From a virus (taxonomy: Duplodnaviria > Caudoviricetes): a stretch of 64,000 nucleotides of DNA. Every line of letters starts with the position of its first letter. Position 1 is the stretch's first letter. Shown in pieces: positions 54,876 to 58,294 of this stretch. The stretch lies in the IMG/VR virus record IMGVR_UViG_3300029305_003084; one strand, 5' to 3'. Made by a program: the position numbers and the translations under genes. The notes beneath the pieces were generated by a model that was given only the letters and a program-made list of their open reading frames with translations, had not been told where the DNA came from and did not search any database.

Positions 54876-57800
54876 TCATAATTTTTCTTTAAAGAATGGA
54901 TCAACAAAAGAGGTTCCAGTCTTACGGAATGTTAGAGGAGATAGTAACTGTCTTCCTAAGAATTGGAAAGATAGACCAATTAATACAGACGGGTGTTTCT
55001 CTAATGCACCACTTACTGTTAACATCTGTGTATCCTGTAATGCACTATATTTAGTAAAATCAGGTCGTTCTAATACATCAGAAATAGAACGAATTAAAGG
55101 TGTTAGTAGTACTTCTGCATGAACACTCATAATATCAATACTAGACTCAATCATTAGATCCATCATAGATTGTACTAAATCATTGACAGTTTCAATACCT
55201 AATTTCCTACGCCCTTCTCTAGTGTCAAGTAAGCCCATGATGTCATATAATGGTCTAGTTAATTCTCTATTTTCAATCTCAATTAAGAATAGTCTACTTT
55301 CATCTTCAATATCATTGAAATTAATTTCATAAATTTCAGGATCACCTTTAGGATGTTTCATTAGTTTCTTTAATTCAGGTGTAATGTAAAATTCTTTCAT
55401 AGATTTTTCATTCATTTCCATGATCTCACCAGTATTATTATCTATAACATGGAACATTGTGACGAAAGAATTTAATTCACCTTCATTTAATTCACTCATA
55501 GTAATGATATTATCTTTAAAGATTAACAGAGCGTAATTATCATCATCACTATCTAACATATTTAAAGTAATTTCATTTGCATTAAGAGAAAAGAATTTAC
55601 TGAATTTTTCACTAAATTCAATTTTCTCAGATGTTGTTGTCAGTAGATGTTTTGTTGAGAGGATTCTCTGTGATAAGGGTTCGGTGATCACAGCTCCAGC
55701 AAAAGACCCAATACCAAGACCATAATTGGTATGGTAATTAATTGGACCATAACAACATTCACAAATACCTTTCTTTGATGCACATGTAATAGGCGATTTA
55801 ACTAGAATCTTTTTACCAATAATATGAGTATCAGATTCAGTTAACACTTTATAATTTCTTTCATGTGGTAATTTATACATTCTACCAATCAATCTGTCCA
55901 TATGCTTTTTAGTTTTAATTTCAAGACAAATTGGATGAACTGATCTACAGTGTTTTTTATTTTCTCTTAATCTAATATCAGAGACTAAGAGCATACATCT
56001 TCGGGCAAAGGCTGTTTATATTCACATAAGGTCGTTACTCTTATGCCGTTCTCTTATGAACTGCTACATATTTCTATGTAGACTAGACTATATCTTCATT
56101 TTAGATTTTTCTAAAATGTTTCCCATTTCCACTCACTTGAGTGTACGTCTTTCGACTAGTCGTTGAACGTTCGTTTAAAAATATTTAAAATTTATAATAA
56201 TTTGAAATATCTGTTCGTCTTTCTCTATTTTTAATATTGCGAACATATCTACTACTACATCCAACAATATTTGCAATTTGACTAATTGTTAAATTGTTCT
56301 CCTCTAATAATTTACATATCATATGAATTGAGTCGTTGGAAACTTTATTCATTAATCTTGGAAACTCAAAATTTTTTGAAATATGTGTCCATGTATTACG
56401 ATTATTTATATGATATATAGTATCTTCGGAAATATTTAATATCTCAGATATTTCTTTTATAGATTTATTATTAGATAACATTTCACAACATTTTAATACT
56501 GTCTCGTCATTAATTTTAGCAAAATTACAATTTTCACCAATATTTGATCTATTATCACATAATCCACTATCAAAAGCATGTTTTATATTTTCACTATGAG
56601 TACACCATTCTAAATTATAAACACAATTATTAGTCTTATCGCCATTACAATGATTTACTTCTAAATCATCATATGATAATCCTTTATCTAAATATTTTTT
56701 AGGAATAGGAATAAATGTCATTGCAACCAATCGATGAATTTTACATTTTTTAGTATTATCACCAAGTTTTAAATTAACATACATATATCCTTTTTTATAT
56801 TTACTGATAGATAATGGTTTATTACTTAACATGCTATATATTTCACCGTTAGTAGAGATTATATAATCTGAATACTGTATTCCATTTACATAAAGAGGAC
56901 TTTTCATATAAATATCAATTAGTAACATATTAATATCACTTCCTTTCATTAATATAATATATAATTGAAATATATAAAATAACGATTAGTATTGTGAATT
57001 GTTAAATATATTTTTAAACGCTTCGCTGCGGATTGTCCAATCTTATAATCTTTTTACTATACCTAAGGCATTACCCTTCGCCCTTATCTATATCACTATG
57101 ATAAGTTAGTAATTATAAGCTCTAAGGAGTTTCCCGCAATTAGAGAAAATTCATTATGTCAATATGACATAATGGGCACACAATTTACCAGATTCCATTT
57201 ATCTTCACATAAGGTCGTTACTCTTATGCCGTTCTCTTATGAACTGCTATATGTCACCATATAGATGAGACTATATCTTCATCTCTAATGAGATGCTCCC
57301 CATTTCCACTCACTTGAGTGTACGTCTTTCGACTAGTCGTTGAACCTTCCTTATATAATATAAGGCTTGGCTGCTGATTGTCTCAATTGAGAGTTCCCAG
57401 CAATTAAAGGAGTTTGCTATATACATCACTGTACATAGGAGCTAAGTTTAAACCTCGACCCATTTTGCTTTTGTTCATAATAAGGGACTTCCTGCCTCCT
57501 AAACTGTCGATGAAATATCCACTAATTGTATTTAAACCACCAACAACTAAATTAGAATTAATAGGAATAGGAATTGTTTCACCAGAAATATTAGGTTTAA
57601 GACCAATATTTCCGGAAAATTCGAACAGTTGCTTATCCTTTATACCTGCACCAACGTTTAGCATAGGCTTAAGATCATTTTCTTCATTTTTCAAAATCTC
57701 AATTTCTTCACGCATTAATTTATGAAGATATTCTTCAATTTCATTAGGTTGCCAACTAGGATCAACCTTCGTATGAAGAATTTCATTGAATCTTTCATTA

Positions 57801-58294
57801 TTATTAGCTACATTAATGAAAGATTCAATACTCATACTCATACCTAAAATAGGATTAAAATCTGTTGAAATTCTAGACAGATTAAAAATAAGGTCATGAA
57901 TAATAATATTTAATTTCTTATTAGAAATCTTATTTCTAAAAGGAATAATAATTTTTTGGTCAATATATGCTTTAATATAACCCGCTGAAATTTTCTTTGG
58001 ATCAATAATAAATGATTCATCAAGATGTTTAACTGAATCCAGTACAATAAGCGGTTCCCAAAAGATAATATTCGTTAAGAAATGTCTTAATTGTAATGTA
58101 TGAATATATCCATCCTCTTTAAATCTAAAATGTACTGGACATTCTCTTAATTCTTTAACTTCAAATCCTTCTCTAAGTTGATTAAATATATGAATAATAA
58201 ATTCTTTATATTTTTTCTCACTTTCCATCTCATTTTCCATTACATAACATGTATTGGTATATGAATCGATAATTTCTTTTACTTCTGGTCTCAT
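54876..58294 (-). CDS. Non-virion RNA polymerase beta' C-terminal subunit, spliced: exons 58294-57458, 57195-57187, 56012-54876 (660 aa)
   Basis: Spliced KMG-ESG-AFARR aligns with bridge helix KTAxSGYLTRR; Zn site SPITC...ICECCYG; trigger loop EPLSQRILSTKH; early promoter 58344. Confidence 0.85.
56013..57186 (-). mobile_element. Group I intron 7 (beta') with HNH ORF
   Basis: GGT|...GCC P1; AATTGCGGGAAA, AATCCGCAGCGAAG, TTCAACGACTA, GATATAGTC; ends ATAAACA. Confidence 0.85.
56185..56928 (-). CDS. Intron-encoded HNH homing endonuclease
   Basis: IHRLVAMTFIP, VNHCNGDKTNN...NLEWCTHSENIKHA; tandem C-terminal HTH-like repeats; AAAGGAAG RBS before MLLIDIY. Confidence 0.88.
   Translation of the reverse strand: MLLIDIYMKSPLYVNGIQYSDYIISTNGEIYSMLSNKPLSISKYKKGYMYVNLKLGDNTKKCKIHRLVAMTFIPIPKKYLDKGLSYDDLEVNHCNGDKTNNCVYNLEWCTHSENIKHAFDSGLCDNRSNIGENCNFAKINDETVLKCCEMLSNNKSIKEISEILNISEDTIYHINNRNTWTHISKNFEFPRLMNKVSNDSIHMICKLLEENNLTISQIANIVGCSSRYVRNIKNRERRTDISNYYKF
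57196..57457 (-). mobile_element. Group I intron 8 (beta'), ORF-less, 262 nt
   Basis: GGGT|...GCTC P1; P2 almost identical to terL intron 1; ends AAATG. Confidence 0.88.

Follow-up and report, generated by a model that had tools for sequence, protein, structure and literature searches.

A predicted three-codon exon between two group I introns in the RNA polymerase beta' gene of an uncultured giant phage

How can an RNA polymerase (RNAP) gene stay readable when two group I introns appear to leave only nine bases of coding sequence between them? The question is raised by a 64,000-nucleotide (nt) stretch of DNA, here called the window, taken from the IMG/VR virus record IMGVR_UViG_3300029305_003084. 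The record is 247 kb long with 28% G+C, has a CheckV completeness estimate of 100% and gives 14 Rfam group I intron matches, and at least 15 related intron 3' domains are spread across the genome. Coordinates are positions in the window unless another contig is named, and the gene and both introns lie on the minus strand. From its sequence we identify the gene, in an uncultured giant phage, as that of the beta' C-terminal subunit of a non-virion RNAP (nvRNAP); it is homologous to AR9 gp154 and is split by two group I introns 9 bases apart. When both larger exon pieces were searched with tblastn, they matched the beta' C-terminal nvRNAP subunits of AR9, PBS1, BpSp and Staphylococcus jumbo phages at about 27-32% identity. 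Exon 1 (57458-58294, 279 codons) covers positions 28-247 of the profile PHROG 3015 ('RNA polymerase beta subunit') and exon 3 (54876-56012, 378 codons and a stop) covers positions 253-649, with a gap of a few positions between them. Exon 1 is colinear with intron-less homologues and ends in AAA ATG GGT (KMG, within ..KSKMG), and exon 3 starts with GCC TTT GCC CGA AGA (AFARR). The best explanation of the locus as a whole, which we regard as very likely, is that two related introns 9 bp apart interrupt the bridge-helix stretch and that the exons are joined as follows. Excision of 57457-57196 (intron I8) and 57186-56013 (intron I7) would join exon 1, GAAUCUGGU and exon 3 into a single 660-codon frame, and the spliced RNA would be expected to read AAAATGGGT, GAATCTGGT and GCCTTTGCC in direct succession.

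A preliminary description of this DNA had placed a nine-base exon at 57187-57195 and read it as part of the bridge helix. Both the sequence and the coordinates proved correct: the plus strand at these positions is ACCAGATTC and the minus strand is GAATCTGGT, which would encode Glu-Ser-Gly (ESG). Protein searches revealed a whole clade of uncultured relatives, about 30 of which have an intron-less gene of 639-662 amino acids (aa). All 27 intron-less homologues from which the motif could be extracted contain ..VMG-xSG-(H/Y)F.., with Ser-Gly invariant (27/27). The closest natural intron-less allele (P0090, 86% identical; L014:3001-4167) was found in three separate metagenome samples (L014-L016) and has no intron at either site. 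It reads AAA ATG GGA GAA TCT GGC GCT TTT GCA AGA CGA (KMGESGAFARR), and the window exons, ATG GGT, GAA TCT GGT and GCC TTT GCC CGA AGA, are colinear with it and show no indel. Exactly at the place of the micro-exon this allele has GAATCTGGC, identical to the window at 8 of the 9 bases. The two intron ends were defined independently of each other, and the distance separating them is divisible by three.

The predicted joined product was compared with its homologues. It has 660 aa, is about 65% identical to homologues of 660-662 aa and aligns ungapped over the junction region; ..KSKMG-ESG-AFARR.. matches P0006 and other homologues with no gap over 40 residues. In P0006, RSGHFARK aligns to NSGYLTRK of AR9 gp154 (PDB 7S00 chain D, E=1.7e-61) and to bacterial beta', and through this homologue the joined product fits the bridge-helix motif ..xSG(Y/H)(L/F)xR(K/R).. 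ungapped. Because the intron-less allele is colinear and the alignment to homologues and the bridge helix is ungapped, we take the nine bases to be a true exon encoding ESG of the beta' bridge helix, with exactly the splice sites first proposed. The further suggestion that this exon serves both as the 3' exon of I8 and as the P1 substrate of I7 also held: its final bases, GGU, pair with the I7 guide GCC.

The upstream intron, I8, is a 262-nt group I intron without an open reading frame (ORF), located at 57196-57457. It gave a full-length match to RF00028 (106.8 bits against a cut-off of 50, model positions 1-253), and the allele without introns in L014-L016 requires it to be removed precisely. 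Its internal guide, GCUC (57439-57442), pairs with exon-1 GGGU (57461-57458) through G-C, G.U, G-C and U.G pairs, the wobble being U57458.G57442, and places the 5' splice site after U57458. The same GGGU/GCUC P1 recurs in five other introns, namely the same-site introns of L006 and L012, a downstream intron of L014, and introns in other genes of this genome. Covarying exon/guide variants in the family include GAGU/GCUC, GGGU/GCCC, CCAU/GUGG, CGU/GCG and CCCU/GGGG. The 3' end of I8, ..GUGAAGAUAAAUG, lies at the family-conserved distance and finishes in G57196 as the terminal omega-G; the AU before it pairs with AU of J7/9 to form P9.0. A local fold in which the I8 segment CAGUUC (57239-57244) pairs with GAAUCUG of the micro-exon (57189-57195; 6 bp, one bulge) was also observed. 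Since CAGUUC is part of a P9.1 hairpin conserved in every family member, this pairing is probably incidental, though it could mask the exon transiently.

The downstream intron, I7 (56013-57186, 1174 nt), was recognised from a partial RF00028 match, from alignment with I8 and from the intron-less allele. It is laid out as a P1-P6 half, a perfect 13-bp stem enclosing a 254-codon ORF, and a P7-P9 half. The 5' strand of the stem (CGUUUAAAAAUAU, 57008-57020) is the perfect complement of the 3' strand (AUAUUUUUAAACG, 56172-56184). When the ORF loop was removed in silico, every I7 core element aligned to I8, and P3 covaries between the two (ACUCC/GGAG in I8 and UUUCUC/GGGAAA in I7). The internal guide UGCC (57175-57178) pairs with GGU (57189-57187) and A57186; the 5' splice site falls after U57187, with the wobble U57187.G57177 lying within GGUA/UGCC. 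Two further introns, L006-B and L010-2, share the arrangement of GGU before the splice site and GCC(C) after N9, with the same 9-nt spacing. The 3' domains of I7 and I8 are 83.5% identical. That of I8 is nearer to other copies in the genome (89-91%), which is why we rejected the view that the pair arose by tandem duplication.

The ORF in loop L6a of I7 (56185-56949) is predicted to encode an HNH homing endonuclease of 254 codons, or 247 from the ATG at 56928. It has an N-terminal Pfam HNH_3 domain (29.9 bits against a cut-off of 24.8) followed by helix-turn-helix modules, matches PHROG 59 (E=3.1e-49) and shows modest similarity to I-HmuI (PDB 1U3E; E=1.2e-9 over about 110 residues). Two in-frame ATGs lie within 56928-56949, and the second, at 56928, has AAGGAAG upstream at a fitting distance. 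A 92% identical relative, P0110, begins at the second ATG. Given this upstream motif and the start of P0110, the protein is probably 247 rather than 254 aa long.

The joining of I7 to exon 3 depends on where the intron ends. A terminal omega-G is near-universal among group I introns. The terminal base of I7 is A56013, the sole non-G among the 22 family introns examined; the omega column holds G in all 12 other family copies of this genome and in all 8 of the relatives' introns tabulated. I7 is unique only at the omega column and at one compensatory P9 pair, and its P7 strands, including the G-binding pair (GACUA/UAGUC), are unchanged. The placement follows from exon 3: the Ala codon is GCC in the window and GCT in the intron-less relative, so G56012 is the first base of exon 3 and A56013 is therefore the last base of I7. 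In 20 of the 22 introns the two bases before omega pair with J7/9 as P9.0, using four different Watson-Crick dinucleotide combinations, and in I7 this pairing forms only when A56013 is the omega base. If the canonical 5' site were used with G56012 as omega, the frame would run into ..ESGPLPEDVCS and then a stop. In addition, where introns occupy the I7 site in L009 and P0013, exon 3 begins with a whole codon. Four independent lines, the frame, the family alignment, the P9.0 register and the homology of the insertion site, thus agree on A56013 as omega.

We judge that A56013 is not an assembly error; a 98%-identical contig of the 99%-identical strain, from a different sample, likewise reads ..AAACA followed by GCC (window 56012-56015, minus strand). 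The contigs of the closest intron-bearing strain break inside repeated intron sequences, and the comparison covers the 3' end of I7 and exon 3. Between the two intron-bearing strains, exon 3 differs at 29 bases (2.6%), giving 23 synonymous and 4 nonsynonymous codon changes. This ratio indicates that the gene downstream of I7 is kept under purifying selection. Collectively, we consider it probable that I7 has its 3' splice site directly after A56013 and that in-frame ligation is good enough to maintain the gene under that selection.

Several points weigh against splicing as proposed here. Changing the omega G to A strongly impairs exon ligation in the Tetrahymena and T4 td ribozymes; together with the unchanged P7 G-binding pair, this means that the adjacent G56012 could be used instead. 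Its use would cause a -1 frameshift with a stop 10 codons on, the junction being ..GGUCCUUUG.., that is, ..TCTGGT joined to CCTTTGCC. As a single match I7 stays below the Rfam cut-off (RF00028 matches of 35.4 and 15.2 bits in one search and 40.8 bits in another, against 50), because the 0.8-kb ORF insertion splits it. Furthermore, the occurrence and order of splicing, and the point at which I7 is really joined to exon 3, are deduced from DNA, and as the genome is known from an uncultured IMG/VR record, the phage is only presumed viable. By descent and architecture I7 is nevertheless regarded as a group I intron despite the A at omega.

The alternative that survives best holds that the 3' site of I7 is defective, so that ligation occurs after G56012 or fails altogether. 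The gene would then be broken in this lineage, or would yield two separate polypeptides, with an internal Met (MLLVSD..) as the start of the C-terminal one. The omega-A beside an unchanged G-binding pair and the G56012 that immediately follows it would both fit such a defect, and in jumbo phages beta' is already divided into N- and C-terminal genes. However, the cut would fall mid-way through the bridge helix, in an ungapped and highly conserved motif, and there is no evident ribosome-binding site before the ATG at 55994. I7 also retains an intact ribozyme core, U.G wobble and P9.0. The occurrence of omega-A in two strains whose exon 3 differs by 2.6% with the 23:4 ratio also speaks against a broken gene, although taken alone it would be compatible with separate translation of exon 3. 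On this balance we consider a defective site unlikely.

A 10-nt micro-exon is less probable still, and we give it little credence. Here the exon would be GAAUCUGGUA, the 5' site of I7 would follow A57186 and the omega-G would be G56012, giving ESG-T-FARR across the junction ..TCTGGTA followed by CCTTTG. Such an exon would keep the frame while restoring a terminal G, and A57186 is able to pair with U57178 in P1. The splice-site base, though, would then be a Watson-Crick-paired A beside an idle U.G wobble, P9.0 would fail as CA is unable to pair with GU of J7/9, and the family alignment would require a 1-nt insertion. The intron-less relative has Ala (GCT) rather than Thr at this residue, in a codon that begins with G, and after the same-site introns in L009 and P0013, exon 3 opens with a complete codon. 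Exons of 4, 6, 7, 8 and 13 nt, and an exon 3 starting with ACA, were ruled out by frame, by a missing U at -1 or by the loss of an invariant residue. That GAATCTGGT is spacer or intron sequence of a twintron or a single composite intron, resembling ESG by chance, can practically be dismissed: nine bases are too few for any gene finder's score and ORF callers skip them, but the intron-less relative has the same nine bases (8/9) contiguous with both flanking exons, both neighbouring introns have complete boundaries of their own, and without the nine bases the invariant Ser-Gly would be lost and the protein would be 3 residues short in an otherwise ungapped alignment.

Given a nine-base exon with the I7 junction after A56013, how would the two introns leave the transcript? 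Each would self-splice and find its own 5' site by a short guide (GCUC:GGGU for I8; (U)GCC:GGU(A) for I7), with the splice-site U in a U.G wobble. P1 of I7 occupies exon bases 7-9 and a weak P10 of I8, at most 2 bp, lies on bases 2-3; as these are separate bases, base pairing imposes no order. Two catalytic cores would presumably be unable to dock together on sites 6-9 nt apart, and if so, the excisions would be sequential. I8 would probably leave first, since it is transcribed in full about 1.2 kb ahead of the 3' half of I7. Pairing energies were also computed on 57458-57475, 57187-57195 and 57174-57186 (minus strand), which represent the RNA after I8 removal. The I7 guide UGCCC paired with the end of exon 1 (GGGU, then G after the site) at -2.1 to -2.3 kcal/mol, compared with -1.9 kcal/mol for the true site (UGGU, then A). 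The calculation predicts a cryptic 5' site for I7, 9 nt upstream, once I8 has been removed, so that order could matter. Its use would delete ESG in frame, joining ..ATGGGT to GCCTTTG (..AUGGGUGCCUUU..). The idea that splicing may be ordered, put forward when the locus was first described, remains a conjecture: no base-pairing conflict forces an order, although the cryptic match offers one concrete ground on which the order might matter.

The mobility of the pair was also considered. The I-HmuI-like HNH protein of I7 would most likely nick intron-less alleles near the insertion site and so drive homing. The preliminary description had further proposed that this nuclease recognises a site spanning both insertion points and carries I8 along; as stated, this was not supported. 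L006 and L012 have introns with a GCUC guide like that of I8 at the I8 site and none at the I7 site, and I7-site introns are found in other relatives (L009, P0013 and P0231). As introns at the two sites occur separately in relatives, the sites have been colonised independently, and, with I8-site introns standing alone in L006 and L012, I8 does not rely on the nuclease of I7. Co-conversion of I8 over 9 bp, argued by analogy, is unnecessary but plausible. In the closest intron-less relative (L014:3800-3850, and also L015 and L016), GGA and GGC stand in place of the two GGT codons whose last base borders a 5' splice site in the window. The -1 bases of the intron-less allele are A and C, and those of the intron-bearing allele are T at both sites, as needed for the U.G pair. 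These GGA and GGC codons could reflect resistance to intron invasion, or the difference could stem from co-conversion in the intron-bearing lineage.

Comparison across the clade revealed that the 20-codon stretch ..DSL GG RKSLIMNKxV MG xSG H F.. contains six distinct intron sites. They lie inside the Leu codon (L010), between the two Gly codons (L005 and L006), inside the Val codon (L007 and L010), after MG (site d: I8 of the window, L006, L012 and L017, whose contig ends within the intron), after SG (I7 of the window, L009, P0013 and P0231) and after His (L010). One genome may hold two or three of these introns together. In L010 (52% identical; protein on 19 contigs), three group I introns without ORFs are found at L010:2595-3490, separated by exons of 36 nt and 19 nt (TATGGGTAGATCTGGCCAT), and in L006 (66% identical) three introns at L006:3954-4956 leave a 39-nt exon. 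The 9-nt exon is thus the extreme of a general pattern, as relatives have exons of 19, 36 and 39 nt in the same stretch. GGU precedes most of the sites, with GCC or GCUC as the guide; I8 and I7 were each inserted after a GGT glycine codon. We infer that introns of a family that requires no more than about 3-4 guide pairs are able to spread from one glycine codon of the region to another. A broader claim, in which I7 ligates accurately with omega-A and an ordinary P7 G-binding pair in an essential gene 9 nt past a sibling ribozyme, with fidelity dependent on order, and in which a GGU-guided family made the bridge-helix stretch of the clade a six-site hot spot, is put forward tentatively and, taken jointly, is somewhat doubtful.

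Further introns were seen elsewhere. The 86% relative has a different group I intron at L014:4160-4311, after ..GIGSFAG (GCGGGT, then TAATATTGAGCTC..), with a GGGU/GCUC P1; this site is uninterrupted in the window. Outside the window, at G000:C1:159032-159975, a family intron ends just before GAC TAT GAC GGA GAT (DYDGD, the beta' N-terminal catalytic motif), and no alignment to the family consensus was obtained for its 3' tail, ..GAAGGATTTCTGG. When the phage collection was searched at the nucleotide level with the complete locus, only the conserved intron core in unrelated phages was matched. Scans of IMG/VR with the exon-3 protein and with exact junction patterns gave no match, and neither did a scan of genome contigs. 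A single metagenome-contig scan with an over-degenerate pattern gave 120 matches, of which 3 passed the family-context filter and none of these 3 was a family intron. An N-terminal fragment of the same gene, 50% identical, lies on a 244-kb contig (P0267) and bears the NCBI/UniRef label hypothetical protein, Romboutsia ilealis, which hints that the phage clade infects low-G+C gut Clostridia.

Several known systems resemble the locus in part. The vRNAP beta gene of PhiPA3 carries a group I intron with the HNH protein gp210 (PMC11620839), and RNAP subunit genes are disrupted by introns in AR9 and in MarsHill-like Staphylococcus phages (bioRxiv 10.1101/2020.12.14.422802). Like these introns of AR9-like and phiKZ-like phages, the locus combines an HNH group I intron with a conserved catalytic-centre motif, and intron content varies among relatives. 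In contrast to the PhiPA3 type, it has two introns 9 nt apart, a 3-codon exon and an omega-A in the HNH intron, and the insertions interrupt the beta' bridge helix, not the catalytic aspartates of beta. Nuclease activity has been shown for gp210, whereas the HNH protein of I7 is a prediction from sequence. Exon skipping is described for Twort orf142, one gene with three group I introns (Landthaler and Shub 1999, as cited in PMC11878797), and for the DNA polymerase gene of SIOphi (PMC11878797). Both have several related group I introns in one phage gene and run the risk of joining non-adjacent exons, as here, but skipping in the window is only predicted, from a guide that matches two sites.

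Small exons and nuclease-driven mobility also have precedents. Mini-exons of less than about 4 codons between self-splicing introns are regular in mitochondrial genes, including fungal ones (PMC10352661). As in the window, they hold a few codons with self-splicing flanks, are missed by gene callers and are recognised through missing conserved residues. Mitochondrial splicing is often protein-assisted, whereas the gene considered here belongs to a bacteriophage and its introns are of the IA2-like phage type. I-HmuI, a nicking HNH homing endonuclease from the SPO1 DNA polymerase intron, shares with the I7 protein HNH_3 domain homology and an ORF in an intron loop. In T4, mobE drives trans-homing of the defunct I-TevIII intron (PMC2790892). 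By analogy, an ORF-less intron such as I8, lying beside a nuclease-bearing element, could in principle be co-converted. Our literature searches found no report of a group I intron in the bridge helix and none of a phage exon of this size between group I introns. The most unusual part of the tandem pair is the omega-A of I7.

The omega-G is among the most conserved features of group I introns, and I7, if it does ligate at A56013 while persisting under purifying selection, would be a rare exception in nature. A 9-nt exon shared by two ribozymes would set a natural lower bound on the exon needed on either side of a group I intron, and the tandem pair would allow the choice of splice sites by sibling introns to be studied. 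Gene callers overlook an exon of three codons, so the essential beta' subunit of the clade is annotated as fragments, and the exons of 19, 36 and 39 nt in relatives make this annotation problem clade-wide. Finally, six sites within 20 codons of the RNAP active-centre helix, together with the non-U wobble bases in intron-less alleles, point to an ongoing conflict between mobile introns and co-infecting phages, resembling the competition by intron nucleases shown for PhiPA3 and PhiKZ.

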